From an uncultured Chloroflexia bacterium (GTDB lineage: Bacteria > Chloroflexota > Chloroflexia > QHBQ01 > JADMIH01): a stretch of DNA of 64,000 bases. The notes beneath the pieces were generated by a model. That model was not told the origin of the DNA, ran no database searches, and was given only the letters and a program-made list of their open reading frames with translations. The DNA lies in assembly GCA_963797095.1 (NCBI GenBank), contig CAWCNY010000005.1:256001-320000 (forward strand). The letters run 5' to 3'. The position numbers were made by a program, and so were the translations under genes. Below are positions 2,312 through 58,192 of the stretch, piece by piece (position 1 is the stretch's first letter; every line of letters begins with the position of its first letter).

Positions 2312-4786
2312 ATGGCATTGCACCGTAAGCATATTTTATGTCGTTTTGCGCTGGCTATCTCGCTCATAGTCATATCCTGCGCTTTCCTCAGCCACGCTCA
2401 AACAAACCCAACCTCAGTATATGCCGCGCCAGCCCCCCCGCAGGCATCCTCCCCATTCGGTGTGGCCGGCGTGATGCGCTGGCCCGTTTGGGGCACCTTC
2501 AACGAGCCTGCTGACCTTATGTTGCAAACAGGCGGCGCGTGGGTGCGCGACGACTTCGTATGGTCCTTGATCGAACCTAAGCCCGACCAATGGGATTGGA
2601 CCGCCACCGACAAGATCGTGGCCGAGTTGGGCGGGCGCAATCTCAATGTCCTGGGCCTGCTGGCCTATTCGGTAAGCTGGGCCACTTCCACCACCGACGA
2701 CAATTCCACAGCGCTCTCATTCTACCCACCCGATCCCGACAAATACTACACCTTCGTTCGCACCCTCGTACGCAGATACAAGAACGTGATCCACACCTGG
2801 GAAGTGTGGAACGAGCCCGACAACAACATATTCTGGAAGCCCTCGCCCAGTCCGCGCGACTACGCGGCCCTCCTCAAGGTCGCATACCGCGCCGTCAAGG
2901 ACGCCGACCCAACTGCCAGAGTCGCAACGGGTGGCGTATCGGGAAACGCTGTGCCCTTCCTCGAAGAAGTATTCGCAAGCGGCGCATCAAACTCGTTCGA
3001 CATCCTGGCGATCCACCCCTATGCCGTGCCCCTCGATCCCGCCCAGGGCCAGATACAAAGCCGCCCTGAAGTCCACAAGATACTCGATGTCGAGCTTGCC
3101 AAGTACCGCGCCCTCCTCAGCAGGCACTCACTGGACAAGCCTGTTTGGGTCACCGAGATCGGCTGGCCCGCGAACGGTTGGAACCTGAACCCCAACCTCC
3201 AGGCCGACTACCTGGCCCAGGCTTACGCGCTCATGCTCTCAAGCGGCCTCACCGAGCGTATCTTTGCATACAGCTTCAAGGACCAATCGGCAAACGGCGG
3301 CGACAGCTGGGGCATGGTCGCCTGGGGTGATGGCGCAACCGACCTGAGCCAGGTTCGACCATCTTTCGACGCCTACTCTACCAGCGCGAAACTCCTGACA
3401 GGCACCTCTCCCGGGGGCCGCATCCAATTATCGCCCGTCTCAGTCGCCGTCGATTTCGAATCGGGCGGCCAGTGGTCGCGCTCCATGCAGGGCGATGGCA
3501 CGCTCACCACTTCCACCGAACGCCAGCACAGCGGATCGGCCTCCGGCAAGCTGCAATACAACCTTACCGCCCAGAACCAGGCCGTGGACTTCGCGCCACC
3601 CCAGCCCGTGAACCTGCCGGGTCAGCCTACCCGCATCGGCGTCTGGGTGCTTGGCGATGGGTCGGGCAACTACCTCAGCGCGTGGCTGCGCGACCGCGAC
3701 GGCGAGCTTTTCAAGGTGCGCCTGGGGGCCGTAATGGGCGCGAACGACGGCTGGCGCTATTACGAATCCTCTATAGACAGCTATTACTTCGATTGGGAGC
3801 ACGCAGGCGGCAACCCCGCCAACGGCAAGCCCGACTACCCACTCCAATTCGTCAGCTTCAGGCTTGAGAACACCCCCGACGAACCTGCCGGTGGGGGCAC
3901 AATCTACCTGGATGATTTGCAGACCTGGGAGGGGCCTGATGTGACCGGCGTTCGTTTCAACAGGGGCGACGGCACCGTCGTTGATGTCGTATGGTCGGCC
4001 AACCCCACCCAGGCCCTTCTGCCCACCTCATCGGGAACCGCCCAGGTCTTTACTCGCGACGGAGCGGAATCGACCGTGACCGCAGGCAACGGCGCGATTC
4101 CACTCGATGTCAACGATAGCCCAATTTATGTGGTCCATAAACCTCCTATCAGCGCCCTGAAAACGACCGCTCCGGTGCTGCCAAACGGCGGGTACACTCA
4201 ATTGTGCGATGCCGCCCAACCTGCCGCCGACCTCAACGCCCCCGGCAACACTTTCTACTCCCAGACATGGCACAACCTCTCCGAACCGTTCAGGTCCTAC
4301 TGGCAGAGCCACGGAGGTGTGAACATCCTGGGCTACCCGATCACCGAGGTGTTTGAGGGCACACTGGACGATGGCAAGCCCTACAAGCTGCAATATTTCG
4401 AACGCGCCAGGATCGAATACCACCCTGAAAATCGCTCACCCGAAGATGTGCAATTGGGACTGTTAGGCGTGTGGGCTGCCGCTCACTCCGATGCGTCACA
4501 CGTGGCACAGGCGCAGGCCGCACCGGGGGGGCAGTTCTTCCCTGAAACGGGCCAGACTCTCAACATCTTCAGCGCCTGGTGGAACGCCAACGGCGGCCTC
4601 TCGACTTTCGGCTTCCCTATATCGCCTGAGACCAAAGAGCGCAACGCCGCCGACGGCAAAGACTACACAGTGCAGTACTTCGAGCGCAATCGCCTCGAAT
4701 ACCACCCCGAAAACGCGGGCACATCCCAGGAAGTGATGCTCGGACTCCTCGGTACCGAGTACGTGACCGCGCAGGGCTGCCGCTGA
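2312..4786 (+). CDS. Secreted clan GH-A glycoside hydrolase (GH39/GH5-like) with a carbohydrate-binding-like domain and two C-terminal Chloroflexi-type repeats
   Basis: Signal peptide; 'WEVWNEPD' (acid/base) and 'VWVTEIGW' (nucleophile); repeats 'GYPITE..QYFERARIEYHPEN' and 'GFPISPE..QYFERNRLEYHPEN'. Confidence 0.8.
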   Translation: MALHRKHILCRFALAISLIVISCAFLSHAQTNPTSVYAAPAPPQASSPFGVAGVMRWPVWGTFNEPADLMLQTGGAWVRDDFVWSLIEPKPDQWDWTATDKIVAELGGRNLNVLGLLAYSVSWATSTTDDNSTALSFYPPDPDKYYTFVRTLVRRYKNVIHTWEVWNEPDNNIFWKPSPSPRDYAALLKVAYRAVKDADPTARVATGGVSGNAVPFLEEVFASGASNSFDILAIHPYAVPLDPAQGQIQSRPEVHKILDVELAKYRALLSRHSLDKPVWVTEIGWPANGWNLNPNLQADYLAQAYALMLSSGLTERIFAYSFKDQSANGGDSWGMVAWGDGATDLSQVRPSFDAYSTSAKLLTGTSPGGRIQLSPVSVAVDFESGGQWSRSMQGDGTLTTSTERQHSGSASGKLQYNLTAQNQAVDFAPPQPVNLPGQPTRIGVWVLGDGSGNYLSAWLRDRDGELFKVRLGAVMGANDGWRYYESSIDSYYFDWEHAGGNPANGKPDYPLQFVSFRLENTPDEPAGGGTIYLDDLQTWEGPDVTGVRFNRGDGTVVDVVWSANPTQALLPTSSGTAQVFTRDGAESTVTAGNGAIPLDVNDSPIYVVHKPPISALKTTAPVLPNGGYTQLCDAAQPAADLNAPGNTFYSQTWHNLSEPFRSYWQSHGGVNILGYPITEVFEGTLDDGKPYKLQYFERARIEYHPENRSPEDVQLGLLGVWAAAHSDASHVAQAQAAPGGQFFPETGQTLNIFSAWWNANGGLSTFGFPISPETKERNAADGKDYTVQYFERNRLEYHPENAGTSQEVMLGLLGTEYVTAQGCR

Positions 4787-14088: not shown

Positions 14089-14193
14089 CTCTTATCAAGA
14101 GAGGTGGAGGGATACGGCCCTATGAAGCCCGGCAACCAGACCAACGGTGGTCCAGGTGCCAACTCCGACAGAGCGATCTGTAAGATGAGGGAG
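14089..14193 (+). ncRNA. SAM-I (S-box) riboswitch aptamer
   Basis: CTCTTATCAAGAG-AGGTGGAGGGA..GGCCC.ATGAAGCCCGGCAACC...GGTGCCAACTCC..CAG....CTG.AAGATGAG, upstream of methionine genes. Confidence 0.95.
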
Positions 14194-53886: not shown

Positions 53887-54297
53887 ATGGCAGGCAATAA
53901 CAACGGTGTCACTACTAGCGATCCTCAAGCGCAGGAACGAATCACCTCCACCAGAAAAGCACAACCCAAACCAATGCCCAAATGGGAATCCGACGTGCGC
54001 GAGCGCATCAAGACTGCGATCCGCCGCTATACACCTCACTTGAACGGCCTCGTGTCGCGCGATGCCAACGAAGGCGATACTCGCCTGCTGATAACCGACT
54101 TCTTATGTGACGCTCTTGGCTACGACAAATATTCGGACTTAACCACCGAGTATCTTGTCAAAGGCGAATTCGCCGATTACGGTGTTCGAATAGACAAACA
54201 ACTGGTGGCGTTTATCGAAGTCAAACGCGCCACCACTAAACTTGACAAGAAACACCTGCGCCAGGTAGAGATGTACGCGGTAATACCAGTGAGCTAA
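53887..54297 (+). pseudogene. Type I restriction HsdR N-terminal-like PD-(D/E)xK nuclease, apparently truncated
   Basis: 'NEGDTR', 'LGYD', 'EY', 'ADY', 'IEVKR', 'Q...YA'. Stops before the usual 'LTNG' segment. Confidence 0.65.
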
Positions 54298-54396
54298 CAC
54301 AGTCTGATCATTGGGGAAAGCTGTCAAAGCGGCTGTCCATCTTAACCAAACAGGGACGCCTGCAAAACAAACGTCCCTTTATAGTATTCAGTTCTC

Positions 54397-54434
54397 TGGT
54401 CGGGGCGCCGCGATTCGAACGCGGGACCTCTTGA
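54397..54434 (-). tRNA. tRNA-Pro(GGG), 3' exon (positions 39-76)
   Basis: TCAAG-AGGTC-CCGCG-TTCGAAT-CGCGG-CGCCCCG-A-CCA. Confidence 0.92.
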
Positions 54435-56906
54435 GTAGGGTAAAAGACCAGCTCTTGGCTTTTGGACCAAGAAACCAACCTCTGCCCTCCGAACCGGACG
54501 TGCGACTTTCATCGCATCCGGCTCTCCAAGAATCTCACTCTTCCAACTGATTAGCGTTGGCGCAGGTCGTATAACAGGTCCGCAAGCTTGATACTGTCGT
54601 ATTCTCCCCTGTGGACTTTTCCGTGACACGACTGGCATACAGGAACTTGCTTTCTGTTGAGAGCACGCATGATGGCTTTGAAGCCAATTGCCGGTTTACC
54701 GTCTGCCTTTCTGATGTGGCGAACGTGGCGCATAACCACCCCATCCGTCTCACCGCAGATTACGCAGGGGTATCCCAGCTTTGAGCGCGTTCTCATCCTC
54801 GTCGCCATCTGTATCAGGTCTGTAGGTTGGTCGCCGTTTGCAAAGGCGTACCTATCTACTTTCCAGTCCCGGTTGACGTAGAACTTGACCGTGCGGTCCT
54901 TCCTCCCGTCCTGGGCTTTGATTACAAACGTAAGCTCTCGCCCATGTTTGCGGTAGATGGAGGCCGAGGTTGCTTTGAGTTTCATACTCAACGTCTTTGC
55001 ACAAGACATTGATAAGACGAATTGGATTCTCGTCAGGCTTCCAAAATTGTCGGTGAACCTGTAGTAACTCTGTATCCCACGATTGATACCGCTGTACAGA
55101 CTTACTATTTGGTCCACGTCCAGGTTTGTCCAGCCTGCTTTGGCCGTTGGTTCCCCTTCTTTGGTACAGAACCCCCTGTCTGCAAGTTTCTCAACAATTC
55201 TCGCTATCGGGGCTTTCATGACCGTCTCCCAGCCAGTGGAGCACCTTTTGAAGGGCTTTCCCCACCTGTTGGTAGTGGTCACGATTTTCGGCTCTCCACC
55301 GTCGCCGGGGCCGATTTGAAGGAGCGTTCCGAGAAATGTAGCTTCTTCTTTCCTGGCTTGGGTGATCCGGGTTTTCTCCTCGCTGAGCGTCAGTTTTAGT
55401 TCCTGACTAAGGAAGCATTTGAGTTCTTCCTTTATCTCCACCGCGAGTGAGTGCGGGCCTTGAATTCCAATTAGCCAGTCATCGGCGTATCGCAGGTATT
55501 TTATCCGGATGAAGTTCGGGTCCGCCGGGTCAATAGCTGGGGTGGTTCTGATTTGCCTGGATAGCGTTTTGAACTCTAGACTTTGTCTGTCGCCCCGTTT
55601 CCGTAGAGTATCCCTACGTTCGACAAGGCTCCGGTACTTGGCATTTCGGCGTTTCGTCTCGCCCCTTTCGTACCTCACTCTTAGCTGTTCAACTCTCTGG
55701 TCTAGTTGGTCTAAGTAGATATCGGCTAAGATTGGGCTTACTATTCCGCCTTGTGGCGTTCCCGCAAGACTGTCTTTGCGCTCGTCCCGCATATCCATGT
55801 ATCCGGCTTTCAGTAGCTTTCGAATTAGGTTGATAAACCGTTCGTCCGCTATCTTCGTGCGCAGGATACTTTCCAGAACTCCGTGGTCTATCTCATCGAA
55901 GCAGGCCCTGATGTCCCCTTCAATTATCCAGTTTACCGCCGACCACCTGGTACGGAACTCTCGCAGCGCCGTATGGCAGCTGCGATTTCGTCTAAACCCA
56001 TGACTTGACTGGTGGAAGTACGGCCCTTGTGAGCTGTCGTAGATAGCTTCCAAAATCATTCGCATGACTTCTTGGACTATCTTGTCTCGTACTGACGGTA
56101 TTCCGAGTCTCCGCATCTTGCCGTTGGCTTTCGGTATAAGTACCGTTCGCACAGGTTTGAATTGAAAGGTCTCGTCACGCATCTGCCGGATTATTCTCTG
56201 GATTTCGTCCATTGAAAATCCATCGAGCGTTTCGCCGTCCGTTCCTGGGGTCATGTTTCCGGGCTTAGACTTGACTCTCTCGTAGGCCAGTACGTACAAG
56301 TCTTCCCTGTACATGAACCTATAGAGGTCTTTGTTTTGCCAGTCCCTGGTGCTATTCAGTTGTTCAAGTGCCTTCACTCTCTGGAAGGCCTGTTCATTAC
56401 TCATCCGAGTAAGCCCTCCTTTCGATGAAGTTAGATTCTCTGTGGCCCTTTCCCGTGTCTCACCCATTACGGTGAGTTTTTGAGTACTATGGCCACTCCG
56501 TAACCCTGGCCCTCACGGGCTTTAGGTCATCCCGAAGTTGCTTAGAAGTCTCGGTTCGTACTTAGGTGCCCATTTCGTTAGTATCCCGCTCCCTGCGGTC
56601 GTCCCCGGTAAGAGCGTTCGCCAGAACTGGGGTTCACTTCCGGCGATACCGGGCTTAGGCATCAACGTCACTGCCTAAGAGTCCTTGATTGACTGACCTA
56701 ACTTGGGTTCGAGTAGTATAACCCTCACCATATACGACCTGGCTGACTGTCCATCTCGATGGTGACGTTCCATCTCAAACAGCCTTTTGGCATCATGCTG
56801 CTGTCCCCTCTCCCTTTCGGGTTCAGGTAAGATGCTGCTTTAGTCACTTTCGCTCTAGTGACACCACACCTCCTGTGGCAGAAACTTCTAAACCACATCG
56901 GCGCAC
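54435..56906 (-). mobile_element. Group IIA intron (2,472 nt) inside tRNA-Pro(GGG)
   Basis: 5' end GTGCG; domain V GAGAGCCGGATGCGATGAAAGTCGCACGTCCGGTTC; domain VI ending CCCTAC; EBS1 ACCCCA (56633-56628) and EBS2 TCAAG (56688-56684) match exon 1. Confidence 0.93.
54551..56404 (-). CDS. ltrA: Group II intron reverse transcriptase/maturase with C-terminal HNH-type domain (LtrA/mitochondrial-like lineage)
   Basis: 'KSKPGNMTPG.DGETLDG', 'RRLGIP', 'SHGFR', 'IEGDI..CFD', 'GTPQGG', 'RYADD', maturase X region, 'CVICG...RHVRH...NRKQVPVCQSCH'. ATG after AAAGGAGG. Confidence 0.95.
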   Translation of the reverse strand: MSNEQAFQRVKALEQLNSTRDWQNKDLYRFMYREDLYVLAYERVKSKPGNMTPGTDGETLDGFSMDEIQRIIRQMRDETFQFKPVRTVLIPKANGKMRRLGIPSVRDKIVQEVMRMILEAIYDSSQGPYFHQSSHGFRRNRSCHTALREFRTRWSAVNWIIEGDIRACFDEIDHGVLESILRTKIADERFINLIRKLLKAGYMDMRDERKDSLAGTPQGGIVSPILADIYLDQLDQRVEQLRVRYERGETKRRNAKYRSLVERRDTLRKRGDRQSLEFKTLSRQIRTTPAIDPADPNFIRIKYLRYADDWLIGIQGPHSLAVEIKEELKCFLSQELKLTLSEEKTRITQARKEEATFLGTLLQIGPGDGGEPKIVTTTNRWGKPFKRCSTGWETVMKAPIARIVEKLADRGFCTKEGEPTAKAGWTNLDVDQIVSLYSGINRGIQSYYRFTDNFGSLTRIQFVLSMSCAKTLSMKLKATSASIYRKHGRELTFVIKAQDGRKDRTVKFYVNRDWKVDRYAFANGDQPTDLIQMATRMRTRSKLGYPCVICGETDGVVMRHVRHIRKADGKPAIGFKAIMRALNRKQVPVCQSCHGKVHRGEYDSIKLADLLYDLRQR

Positions 56907-56945
56907 ACCCCATTCAAGTGCGCTACCGGGCTGCGCTACGCCCCG
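56907..56945 (-). tRNA. tRNA-Pro(GGG), 5' exon (positions 1-38)
   Basis: CGGGGCG-TA-GCGC-AGCCCGGTA-GCGC-A-CTTGA-AT-GGG-GT. Acceptor and anticodon stems pair perfectly with the 3' exon. Confidence 0.92.
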
Positions 56946-56977
56946 AAACCGTGCCTCATCTCAGCGGCACGACCCTA

Positions 56978-57006
56978 ATTATACCAGAACCGCCCCAACC
57001 CTGCAA
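56978..57006 (-). promoter_or_regulatory. Sigma70-type promoter of the intron-containing tRNA gene
   Basis: TTGCAG-17 nt-TATAAT with extended -10 TGn, about 32 nt upstream of the tRNA. Confidence 0.7.
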
Positions 57007-57293
57007 ACCACCCCGACCCAAACACCAGGGCGGACGCAAAGTCAGGCACGAACCCGCAATTATGGTCGCTGGAACCCTTTCCGAGAAAGTAGCTCTTGCC
57101 ATTGACGCCTAGCCGGACCTGGCAATATGCCGGTCACGGTTGCCCAACCAGCTAACTTCGCATTGACGCCTGACTTTGCATCCGCCCTGGACCCAAAACA
57201 AAAGAGGCACCCCAAACAAAGAGTGCCCCATGACTACCAACAAGCAACCAGGAACTTGGAACTTGGAACCCCAATCCGACTACCGACTACCAA

Positions 57294-58124
57294 CTACTCC
57301 CTCTCCACCGGAAACTGTATCTCCGTAACCCACTTCGACTGGTCCCCATTCCTCTTGTACTCCAGGTTCAACTCCCGACTTGGCCCCGCGATCTTATACC
57401 CCGACCGCTCAAGCCAGCTACCAATCGCCCCATAAGCCGCGCTCAGCGTCGAAAACGGCCCGTGATGCACCACGCTCGCCATATTCTCCACCCCGGGCAA
57501 CTCCTCGATCCTCACCCGCTCGCTATCCTTGATCCTGCTGTTAGTAGGGATCGATATCCCCACTTGCACATCATTAGGCTGCACCCCAGGGTCGCCGAAC
57601 CATAGCGCCGTGGGCGGACCGCTAATCTCCCCACCATTCCTCGCCACATGCTCCAGCACCTCGTCAAACAACCGGTCAAAAGTCACACCCACCACGTCCA
57701 TACTGGGCACAACATCGCGCACCATAGCCACGCGCACCGGCTCGACGCGCTTCACAACAACCTCATAGTCAGGCATCTTACCCTCCAATTCAATCTGCTC
57801 GATGCGGGCTTCAACCCGCGCCAATCTCTCCTTGATCTCATGCGCCTGCGCCTGAAGCTCGGCCCGCTTCACCTTCAACATCCCCCTGATCTCCTCCGTC
57901 GGAAGCTCATCGCCCAGCAATTGCCTTATCTGCTCCAACCACAGCCCCAACTCCTTCAAAGCCAGTATCCGGTGCAGCATCCCCAGTTGGTCGAACGAAT
58001 AATACCGGCACCCTGTCCACCGGTCCACGTCCGCAGGTCGCAGCAGCCCTACCTCGTCGTAATACCGCAACCCCGATACCGACACCTGCCCCAATCGCGC
58101 AAACTCTCCAATCTTCAGTCGCAT
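57294..58124 (-). CDS. MerR-family regulator with GyrI-like effector domain (BmrR-like)
   Basis: 'LKIGEFA..VS..LRYYD..GLL.P', 'HHGPF', 'GPSRE', 'TEIQFPV'. Confidence 0.9.
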   Translation of the reverse strand: MRLKIGEFARLGQVSVSGLRYYDEVGLLRPADVDRWTGCRYYSFDQLGMLHRILALKELGLWLEQIRQLLGDELPTEEIRGMLKVKRAELQAQAHEIKERLARVEARIEQIELEGKMPDYEVVVKRVEPVRVAMVRDVVPSMDVVGVTFDRLFDEVLEHVARNGGEISGPPTALWFGDPGVQPNDVQVGISIPTNSRIKDSERVRIEELPGVENMASVVHHGPFSTLSAAYGAIGSWLERSGYKIAGPSRELNLEYKRNGDQSKWVTEIQFPVERE

Positions 58125-58161
58125 AACACTCCCCACTTCCCACTCGAAGATCTTCACCCCC

Positions 58162-58192
58162 ACCATACACCTTCAACCAACCTGAGAGTCAA
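58162..58192 (-). promoter_or_regulatory. MerR-type promoter with 19-bp spacer
   Basis: TTGACT-19 nt (imperfect dyad CTCA...TGAAG)-TATGGT directly upstream of the MerR gene. Confidence 0.6.

Follow-up and report, generated by a model that had tools for sequence, protein, structure and literature searches.

The window, the whole stretch of 64,000 nucleotides that was analysed from a contig of an uncultured Chloroflexia bacterium, carries a tRNA-Pro(GGG) gene split by an intron that encodes a maturase. Read on the minus strand from 56945 to 54397, exon 1, the intron and the 38-nt exon 2 follow one another without interruption (Table 1). Joining the exons in silico yields a single 77-nt tRNA-Pro(ggg) cloverleaf in ARAGORN. 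Its GGG anticodon, G37, C1-G72 pair and A73 are the identity elements of tRNA-Pro(GGG). The insertion point is between tRNA nucleotides 38 and 39. Of the 29 other genomes of the order, 16 have an uninterrupted tRNA-Pro(GGG) gene that agrees letter for letter with the joined exons over nucleotides 1-74, which excludes a chance resemblance. The first-pass annotation, made from the letters alone, had described this arrangement: a 77-nt tRNA-Pro(GGG) with encoded CCA, interrupted between positions 38 and 39 by a 2,472-nt intron that runs from GTGCG to CCCTAC and holds an intact YADD RT/maturase. Its coordinates are exact, and ARAGORN on the spliced sequence, Rfam and Pfam agree with it. It had also judged that default tRNA finders would probably miss the gene, and neither default ARAGORN nor the Rfam tRNA model calls a tRNA at the split locus. 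The sigma-70 promoter that it placed ahead of exon 1 corresponds to a promoter-like site matching 10 of 12 consensus positions, with the -10 element ending 33 nt ahead of tRNA nucleotide 1; such sites number 3 in the region versus 1.5 +/- 1.3 in shuffled sequence.

Table 1. Features of the split tRNA-Pro(GGG) gene and its intron, in the order of transcription; positions are those of the window.
Feature	Position	Strand	Description
Promoter-like sigma-70 site	56978..57007	-	TTTGCA, 18-nt spacer, TG-extended TATAAT; consensus match only
Exon 1	56907..56945	-	tRNA-Pro(GGG) nt 1-38 (standard numbering), 39 nt; acceptor 5' strand, D arm, anticodon-stem 5' strand (IBS2), anticodon loop; final 6 nt are IBS1, TGGGGT
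Group II intron	54435..56906	-	2,472 nt; starts GTGCGCC, ends CCCTAC
Probable EBS2	56684..56689	-	ATCAAG; TCAAG core pairs with CTTGA of the anticodon-stem 5' strand (alignment)
Delta nucleotide	56634	-	A, directly 5' of EBS1; A-T pair with first 3'-exon nt
EBS1	56633..56628	-	ACCCCA, intron nt 274-279; pairs 6/6 with IBS1
Ribosome-binding site	56415..56420	-	AGGAGG, 10 nt ahead of maturase ATG; read from sequence
Intron-encoded protein	54551..56404	-	617 aa; RT (YADD), maturase X, HNH; stop codon within coordinates
Domain V	54491..54524	-	34-nt hairpin with 2-nt bulge (Rfam match, fold)
Domain VI	54437..54488	-	MFE fold, z = -3.5, and Rfam match
Exon 2	54397..54434	-	tRNA nt 39-76; anticodon-stem 3' strand, variable loop, T arm, acceptor 3' strand, A73, encoded CCA
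Intrinsic-terminator-like hairpin	54352..54378	-	12 pairs, then T-rich tail; 19 nt past CCA

The ends of the intron (GTGCG start, CTAC end) fit the group II rule of 5' GUGYG and 3' AY. The search with Rfam Intron_gpII (RF00029) that had been proposed for 54435-54540 gives a match at 54435-54526(-) of 67.3 bits, above the gathering score of 40 (E 4.4e-11). A bacterial tRNA group I intron was rejected at this locus: the gathering-level Rfam matches within the window include Intron_gpII and no group I intron family. The candidate branch point is A54441, which is left unpaired in the MFE fold of domain VI and precedes the 3' splice site by 7 nt. EBS1 and delta together pair with tRNA nucleotides 33-39. 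EBS2 was placed through an alignment with relatives that took in the first ~600 nt of the intron; its pairing with IBS2 has a 5-bp core and is a weaker case than EBS1. IIA introns are defined by a delta-delta' pairing in which the nucleotide just 5' of EBS1 takes part, in place of an EBS3 in the coordination loop. The intron is probably of the IIA / mitochondrial-like (ML) type, because delta lies directly 5' of EBS1 and because the best solved (PDB) relative of its maturase is LtrA (residues 25-597, E 6.5e-90). By the Rfam, Pfam and fold analyses, the ribozyme and the maturase each retain every feature that splicing requires. As judged from its sequence, the insertion is a complete maturase-encoding group II intron with predicted splicing capacity.

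The maturase ORF has RVT_1, Intron_maturas2 and AI2M-like HNH domains, all above Pfam cut-offs. Its dN/dS versus six relatives is 0.08-0.21 (0.16-0.21 against relatives of 89-94% identity, 0.08-0.12 against those of 67-71%), values that indicate purifying selection on the whole protein. A MatK_N match scores 25.4 bits, below the Pfam cut-off of 31.4. Weak MatK_N matches are also found in four of eight other family members tested, two of them at non-tRNA sites and one at a site that is unknown. A special tie to MatK was rejected, such sub-threshold hits being scattered over the family, including members outside tRNA genes. Nor is this a protein of the MatK type, with its degenerate RT motifs, given that YADD and RVT_1 are intact and MatK_N remains under its cut-off.

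The assembly (6.02 Mb, 93% complete) codes for 71 tRNAs, with cgg (two genes) and tgg (two genes) as the only proline tRNAs called by ARAGORN. The search for another tRNA-Pro(GGG), suggested in the first-pass annotation, found none in this 93% complete assembly by ARAGORN or by a 30-nt exon pattern, whose single match at up to 3 mismatches is the split gene; a second gene may sit in the missing part, because the assembly is incomplete to that extent. The intron itself is single-copy in the genome. ARAGORN run with long introns over the whole genome makes eight calls, among which the window locus is the only tRNA split by a group II intron. The other seven were dismissed as spurious because their printed junction lacks the GTGCGCC intron start. 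CCC codons, noted earlier as visibly abundant, are the commonest proline codons in 2,572 long ORFs (34.8%) and amount with CCT (22.7%) to 57%. Within the order, loci of tRNA-Pro(GGG) were located with the exon 1 pattern in place of synteny. The 5'-half pattern is present in 37 of 40 genomes, and the gene is uninterrupted at 29 of the 30 loci read, being split only in the window genome. Synteny had been set aside as a weak empty-site test. The MerR-like neighbour gene, 57294-58166(-), has matches in 9 of 26 genomes of the genus, and an uninterrupted tRNA lies beside it only in G016 (flagged unpublished); the window genome's own locus aside, the other seven neighbour loci have no tRNA next to the gene.

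Four soil contigs share these junctions, and their maturases have 94, 94, 89 and 71% identity to that of the window; L143 holds the 3' junction, and L144, L145 and L146 hold the 5' junction. Their exon variants match different host tRNA alleles. The Pro(GGG) exons look intact on all four, over a synonymous divergence of up to about 2, and their introns contain no spare tRNA. The intron of L147 has the same EBS1 and EBS2 as that of the window. Horizontal homing fits this distribution: 29 of the 30 loci read in the order are without the insertion, yet its junctions recur with different exon alleles. The proposal that the element is a tRNA-homing retroelement is supported by these contigs and by relatives that interrupt position 38/39 of five other tRNAs with covarying EBS1 and delta.

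These relatives, from Chloroflexota, Alpha- and Gammaproteobacteria, split genes for tRNA-Gly(CCC), Val(GAC), Arg(CCU), Ser(UGA) and Leu(UAA), all at 38/39. EBS1, located by alignment in five introns and by nucleotide numbers in three, allowing for the inserted tRNA in L224/L225, pairs 6/6 with the last six exon 1 nucleotides in all eight tRNA-splitting introns, which cover six tRNA species, and covaries with the target. Delta pairs with the first 3'-exon nucleotide in seven of the eight and likewise covaries, the exception having decayed exons. In the G015 intron, a tRNA-Gly splitter, the EBS2 hexamer AGCAAA pairs 6/6 with TTTGCT of its tRNA. The argument from covariation rests on EBS1 and delta, since EBS2 is not assignable with confidence in L026, L031 and L034. 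L033, which has the 3' half of a tRNA-Ser, was rejected as a full splitter: the search found neither a match to domain I nor a 5' exon there, and it is probably a 5'-truncated copy. On well-supported branches of a 43-row IQ-TREE quick tree the tRNA-residence label changes at least four times, and in a 136-row FastTree at least three times. A single origin of tRNA residence was not retained, the trees showing neither one origin nor repeated gains.

Outside the Pro lineage, seven of eight splitters hold inside the intron an intact tRNA with the anticodon of the gene that they split. Such a tRNA is absent from the broken eighth splitter and from the Pro lineage of the window. The first-pass annotation had described neither these spare tRNAs nor the wider clade. 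The intron-borne tRNAs have the same anticodon, a different anticodon stem and the same strand as the intron. Such a copy may escape insertion by the intron. L225 has decayed split Val exons together with an intact intron-borne copy. That seven of eight non-Pro splitters carry a spare tRNA, one of them with decayed exons, suggests that a tRNA context does not in every case allow adequate splicing.

Parts of the stretch occur in 20 metatranscriptome runs from 11 studies, whose contigs cover 26-27 of 30 bins, the presence of a contig in an RNA library being no proof of transcription. Contigs from soil RNA libraries cover the intron, and one record (X7 record 25, 54400-54590) bridges the 3' splice site. 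In X5, record 16 was not counted, since its 24 nt of exon 1 fall short of the 31 nt required of a bridge. A single exon-exon joint occurs among the RNA contigs (X7, depth 2, shorter side 25 nt, 3 odd letters between the exons). It was rejected as evidence of splicing: the gene exists uninterrupted in other soil bacteria, and this joint is indistinguishable from such a gene. No ligated-exon RNA is assignable to the window organism among the RNA-library contigs.

The explanation that we favour, with a probability of about 0.7, is that the single tRNA-Pro(GGG) gene of this soil bacterium was entered by retrohoming of a mobile IIA/ML group II intron whose RT-maturase-HNH protein is complete, and that supply of this tRNA now depends on ribozyme splicing. 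The site would be recognised by pairing of EBS1 with anticodon loop nucleotides 33-38, of the delta A with nucleotide 39 and of EBS2 with the 5' strand of the anticodon stem, while the maturase would presumably also read the conserved D-arm DNA upstream. The split gene appears to retain its own promoter and terminator, so that intron and maturase mRNA would both be part of the pre-tRNA. Translation from its own Shine-Dalgarno site would yield the maturase, which would bind the intron and promote lariat splicing at the bulged A, and the ligated exons would be trimmed to a normal tRNA-Pro(GGG). With no other GGG isoacceptor and no spare tRNA in the intron, the supply of the tRNA that reads CCC and CCU would depend on this splicing. 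The sequences themselves establish the anatomy, the pairings with their covariation, the single copy, the integrity of the exons, purifying selection on the protein and the recurrence of the junction in other soil sequences; that the intron splices in the cell, that it still moves and that the host needs the tRNA we infer.

Alternatively, a selfish element may have inactivated a dispensable tRNA: UGG tRNA would read CCC and CCU, little or no mature GGG tRNA would be made, and the exons would look perfect for no other reason than the youth of the insertion. The two UGG genes, present beside two CGG genes, lend this some weight, because U34 of the two Pro(UGG) tRNAs, suitably modified or unmodified, could read all four CCN codons, which may make the GGG tRNA dispensable. 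An insertion found at one of 30 loci in the order may also be recent, and intact exons therefore do not prove selection. The relatives commonly need a spare tRNA, as the decayed Val exons of L225 illustrate, and the RNA-library contigs offer no ligated product assignable to the organism. Such a neutral dead end is, however, at odds with the wide presence of the tRNA-Pro(GGG) 5' half in the order and with the share of proline codons that the tRNA reads. Moreover, four further contexts show the same lineage within Pro(GGG) exons that look intact, at the synonymous depth given above and with no spare, and every ribozyme and maturase feature needed for splicing is preserved. We regard it as unlikely.

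Retrohoming followed by dependence on splicing has also to be weighed against an immobile, domesticated intron like that of plastid trnK/matK, which would splice and whose protein would act as a maturase only. Residence of a single-copy intron in a single-copy gene would suit domestication, as would the MatK_N similarity; this similarity, however, is shared by half of the other members tested, two of them at non-tRNA sites. The intact YADD and HNH motifs, with purifying selection over the whole protein, and the contrast between 29 empty loci in the order and identical junctions with different exon alleles in soil contigs argue against loss of mobility, and we hold domestication to be quite improbable. 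An assembly chimera or chance resemblance is barely conceivable. The junctions recur on independent metagenome contigs (the 3' side in L143, the 5' side in L144-L146), an RNA-library contig bridges the 3' junction while a second one reaches into exon 1, and the exons equal orthologous intact genes; no support for this reading was found.

Among known systems, the mobile intron favoured here resembles Ll.LtrB/LtrA of Lactococcus lactis in the RT-X-D-HNH organization of its protein, the GTGCG start, EBS1/EBS2 and the delta adjoining EBS1. Mobility is presumably by target-primed reverse transcription, as for Ll.LtrB. The gene that Ll.LtrB occupies is the relaxase gene of a conjugative element, whereas the tRNA anticodon loop that the window intron interrupts is chromosomal, and the intron is a predicted part of the pre-tRNA. 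Bacterial tRNA group I introns (cyanobacterial tRNA-Leu(UAA) and tRNA-fMet, Azoarcus tRNA-Ile) are likewise self-splicing ribozymes in anticodon loops. They differ in ribozyme class and chemistry, in their size of a few hundred nt and in homing by a DNA endonuclease where they are mobile. Class C introns, located behind terminators, and attC-site introns (the latter mentioned in PMC4424553) also form lineages tied to a kind of structural target and not to one gene, the target kind of the window's relatives being tRNA 38/39 in six tRNA species. Class C and attC introns lack En and avoid functional genes, while the tRNA splitters have HNH and split RNA genes of an essential type.

Plastid tRNA introns (streptophyte trnK(UUU)/matK and other trn) are a further parallel, sharing the group II intron in the anticodon loop of a tRNA that would need splicing, and the intron-encoded maturase. 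That such introns are a plastid feature, as the first-pass annotation had stated, agrees with passages of two papers, which describe group II introns in tRNA genes only for plastids (PMC4424553, PMC3607583); reviews portray those of bacteria as keeping out of functional genes. Full-text literature searches returned no precedent for a bacterial group II intron in a tRNA gene. According to the same passages, trnKI1 is IIA and MatK lacks RT motifs 0-4 and has lost mobility (PMC4424553). The florideophyte trnMe intron is described there as encoding an RT/maturase and as sitting after the third anticodon position (PMC3607583), in contrast to 38/39 for the window intron. Plastid trn introns are organellar and evolutionarily fixed; the window intron belongs to a free-living bacterium, has a complete protein and is sporadic among congeners.

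We propose, tentatively and at somewhat less than even odds, that a sub-clade of IIA/ML introns is repeatedly or ancestrally specialised on tRNA 38/39. It would switch isoacceptor through EBS1 and delta, with the protein reading conserved tRNA-gene features. Most members would soften the harm done by carrying an intact same-anticodon tRNA; in the Pro(GGG) lineage, without a spare, more than half of the host proline codons would hang on ribozyme splicing. Such introns would be a bacterial counterpart, and possibly a source state, of plastid introns such as trnK/matK. Note that tRNA sets of intron-bearing genomes are under-called, since default tRNA finders report split genes as missing. In the window, a free-living bacterium supplies a case that is complete and apparently active. 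With it one can test by what means retroelements find a tRNA gene, whether supply of a major tRNA can be gated by a ribozyme, and whether carrying a replacement tRNA earns an intron tolerance, as well as the ways in which tRNA introns of plastids may have started.

The tRNA-Pro(GGG) gene is interrupted in its anticodon loop, between tRNA positions 38 and 39 (38/39), by a group II intron. Reading of the sequence and ARAGORN analysis of the joined exons, which yields a single 77-nt tRNA-Pro(GGG) cloverleaf, show that the first-pass annotation had placed both tRNA halves around the intron correctly in every detail. It had also anticipated that default tRNA finders would miss the gene: neither default ARAGORN nor Rfam sees a tRNA at the split locus. 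When long introns are allowed, ARAGORN reports a tRNA divided by an insert of 2,472 nt, misplacing the cut and misnaming the tRNA. The split gene is bracketed by a promoter-like site upstream, corresponding to the sigma70 promoter proposed before exon 1, and a terminator-like hairpin downstream.

Features of the split tRNA-Pro(GGG) gene (window positions), of related split tRNAs and of intron-borne tRNAs (L, loci carrying relatives)
Feature	Location	Strand	Remarks
Exon 1, tRNA 5' half ending in the anticodon loop, 39 nt	56945..56907	-	direct read of 54200-57150
Group II intron, 2,472 nt	between 56907 and 54434	-	direct read; begins GTGCGCC directly after exon 1, ends CCCTAC
Exon 2, tRNA 3' half, 38 nt	54434..54397	-	direct read; CCA encoded
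Promoter-like site	57007..56978	-	consensus match only
Terminator-like hairpin	54378..54352	-	consensus match only
Maturase ORF, 617 aa	56404 (ATG) to 54551	-	RVT_1, Intron_maturas2, AI2M-like HNH; YADD present
Val(GAC) split at 38/39	L026, L224, L225		
Arg(CCU) split at 38/39	L223		
Ser(UGA) split at 38/39	L031		Bradyrhizobium macuxiense
Ser(UGA) split	L033		alphaproteobacterial MAG; probably truncated copy
Leu(UAA) split at 38/39	L034		Marinobacter MAG
Intron-borne tRNA	L004:1400-1474	-	G015; after ORF
Intron-borne tRNA	L031:3333-3422		after ORF
Intron-borne tRNA	L034:1300-1385		before ORF
Intron-borne tRNA	L223 1327-1400		reverse-complemented; before ORF
Intron-borne tRNA-Val(GAC)	L026:768-841		~70-155 nt into domain I (Val introns)
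Intron-borne tRNA-Val(GAC)	L224:782-856		~70-155 nt into domain I (Val introns)
Intron-borne tRNA-Val(GAC)	L225:779-852		~70-155 nt into domain I (Val introns)

The intron is complete and codes for its maturase, as first annotated. Rfam Intron_gpII matches 54435-54526 at 67.3 bits (gathering score 40), and the Rfam results for the window rule out a group I tRNA intron. The final 111 nt fold (z = -3.5 against shuffles) into domain V, a 34-nt hairpin containing a 2-nt bulge, and domain VI, whose helix leaves an A unpaired seven nt before the intron end. The maturase ATG is preceded by AGGAGG 10 nt upstream, and the stop codon is followed after only 26 nt by domain V. The protein is under purifying selection (dN/dS 0.08-0.21 against six relatives). 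Among solved proteins its best match is LtrA, encoded by Ll.LtrB (residues 25-597, E 6.5e-90), while the match to other group II reverse transcriptases is confined to the RT part.

Not only the protein architecture but also the target pairing resembles that of Ll.LtrB. EBS1, ACCCCA (intron nt 274-279), is the exact complement of TGGGGT, the last six nucleotides of exon 1 (tRNA nt 33-38, anticodon included). The delta nucleotide, an A just 5' of EBS1, can pair with the first nucleotide of exon 2; a delta next to EBS1 is the IIA arrangement. ATCAAG, ~55 nt upstream of EBS1, is the probable EBS2, with a predicted 5-bp pairing to CTTGA in the 5' strand of the anticodon stem. Between them, these three pairings make the entire anticodon arm the portion of the target that is read by RNA. 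Exon 1 and domain I would be transcribed long before exon 2, so that IBS1 and IBS2 could bind the intron at a time when the tRNA strand they pair with has yet to be made.

A 30-nt segment of exon 1, searched with up to 3 mismatches in 40 genomes of the same order, is present in 37 of them and occurs once in the window's genome. The tRNA-Pro(GGG) gene is uninterrupted in 29 of the 30 loci fetched, the intron being found in the window's genome only, and 16 of these 29 genes match the joined exons without a difference over nt 1-74. Leaving out three loci from genomes flagged unpublished (G016, G021, G022), the figures are 26/26 uninterrupted and 14/26 identical. The homologue search found soil metagenome relatives flanked by the same tRNA halves: L143 (maturase 94% identical) shares the 3' junction, and L144 (94%), L145 (89%) and L146 (71%) share the 5' junction. 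The exon variants of L145 and L146 match further tRNA-Pro(GGG) alleles found in the order. A fifth contig, L147 (68%), has no flanks but carries identical EBS1 and EBS2 hexamers. The same junctions on independent contigs rule out an assembly artefact. Contig L144 (L144:1, Ga0308206_1001263) starts exactly at tRNA nt 1 and continues into the intron; it may represent a 5'-processed unspliced precursor or a coincidence.

Related introns split other tRNAs. In G015, a genome of the same genus, a contig ends exactly at nt 1 of an intron with a 68%-identical maturase. A tRNA 3' half forms the 3' exon of this intron, and the 5' half, followed by GTGCG, lies on another contig; together they form a tRNA-Gly(CCC) split at 38/39. 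Further cases (see the table) were found among the best 80 named-genome loci and in a Chloroflexota sample, where 5 of 401 genomes have a close maturase. All eight introns with a known 5' exon pair EBS1 with their tRNA loop at 6/6 positions, across six different tRNA species. In the five introns that were aligned, EBS1 falls at the same alignment position; in L223-L225 it was matched by nucleotide number, after correction in L224 and L225 for the inserted tRNA. Delta pairs with the first 3'-exon nucleotide in 7/8, the exception being L225, whose exons are decayed. No other line of evidence argues as strongly as this covariation that the introns target tRNA anticodon arms, and it supports the tRNA homing originally proposed. 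The anticodons of Pro(GGG) and Gly(CCC), the two closest target species, are complementary, so each intron's EBS1 resembles the loop of the other tRNA (window 56628-56633; L004), possibly by chance.

In an IQ-TREE quick tree of 43 proteins the window's maturase belongs to a 6-row clade (99% SH-aLRT) whose five members with known flanks all split tRNAs (Pro x4, Gly x1). The splitters of Val, Arg, Ser and Leu tRNAs occupy other places within a 36-row clade (100% support). Many other family members, mostly of Ktedonobacteria type (52-61% identity), reside in non-tRNA sequence; relatives at 55-61% are found in Ktedonobacter and Dictyobacter genomes. Genomes from the host's own phylum show an almost identical pattern of matches to these, which makes the host probably a Chloroflexota member belonging to a different class. 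On well-supported branches the tree requires no fewer than four changes in tRNA residence, which may be ancestral or recurrent; a 136-row FastTree gives a similar picture. Among the related maturases, L219 and L221 (with L208, L218 and L220) form a long-branched group. The readable 3' exon of L219/L221, which by eye we take to resemble the start of the cytochrome b6f subunit IV (petD) frame, suggests plastid or cyanobacterial introns inside the same clade. In Ktedonobacter racemifer (L024, NZ_ADVG01000005; 1316-1404, 3352-3468, 3638-3907) one maturase gene flanked by two domain V/VI matches suggests a nested or recombined intron, with a HEARO RNA (112.8 bits) directly downstream.

The window's genome holds other group II sequences. 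A solitary domain V/VI fragment (G000:C4:422480-422541; L002:1460-1560, minus strand; Rfam 50.5 bits) is 87% identical over 61 nt to that of the window, has a 3' flank that is not tRNA-like and no maturase match beside it, and is probably the remnant of a related intron. Two maturase pairs, each with identical match statistics (C2:823445-825172 and C3:570214-571941; C1:492855-494627 and C3:116456-118228, the latter pair with an in-frame TGA), are ~40% identical to the window's maturase and represent further intron families. The window also carries an ordinary SAM riboswitch (14089-14191, plus strand; RF00162, 80.7 bits).

Outside the Pro lineage, seven of the eight splitters carry inside the intron an intact tRNA of the same anticodon and strand; the broken copy L033 has none intact. 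The anticodon stem of the inner tRNA differs from that of the split gene in 7/7 and the loop is identical in 5/7. These tRNAs would be replacement copies that take the harm out of the insertion, and the intron is perhaps unable to attack them. An inner spare with the loop of the split gene could pair with the EBS1 of its own intron. In L225 (genome G329), where the 5' exon immediately precedes nt 710 and the 3' exon follows nt 3512, the exons of the split tRNA-Val(GAC) have degenerated, with D and T arms lost. The inner copy is undamaged, and the host apparently relies on it. No inner tRNA occurs in the window's intron or in any of its four Pro(GGG) relatives.

Group II introns in tRNAs are described in streptophyte plastids and in florideophyte trnMe (PMC3607583), trnKI1 being the IIA example in an essential tRNA (PMC4424553). 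Like plastid trnK/matK, the window's element resides in a tRNA gene and encodes a maturase. Intact RT and En domains and a MatK_N score below cut-off show that it is not of MatK type. Full-text searches, in a collection short of most subscription journals and of the Zimmerly database, turned up neither a bacterial tRNA gene that a group II intron splits nor a replacement tRNA borne by an intron, and either may have been mentioned before. The structure stands as real and complete. It places a group II intron, probably of the IIA/ML class, in a niche new for such introns, the anticodon loop of a bacterial tRNA.

ARAGORN finds 71 tRNAs in the assembly (6.02 Mb, 93% complete). The proline genes are two CGG and two UGG, with no other tRNA-Pro(GGG). 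One Pro(UGG) and one Pro(CGG) gene lie inside a dense tRNA array; ~24 Rfam tRNA matches, the second Pro(UGG) and Pro(CGG) copies included, occupy 4.5 kb at G000:C2:1279207-1283690. The genome-wide ARAGORN list has two Arg(GCG), no Arg(ACG) and no Ala(GGC). CCC codons are abundant, as noted initially, being the commonest proline codon in 2,572 long ORFs (34.8%; CCT 22.7%). Part of the split-gene stretch is found in twenty metatranscriptome runs from 11 studies, and in four runs contigs at ≥90% identity cover 26-27 of 30 bins. One contig (run X7, record 25) bridges the 3' splice site and another (X5, record 16) ends 24 nt into exon 1; no ligated-exon RNA assignable to this organism is present among these contigs. 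The coverage fits abundant intron-containing RNA, contigs from RNA libraries not being proof of transcription. The UGG tRNA might cover all four CCN codons, and the insertion into tRNA-Pro(GGG) may be recent. The occurrence in 37/40 genomes, codon use, the missing GGG isoacceptor and dN/dS favour a working split gene. That the cell would need the ribozyme for its main proline tRNA is a well-motivated proposal.
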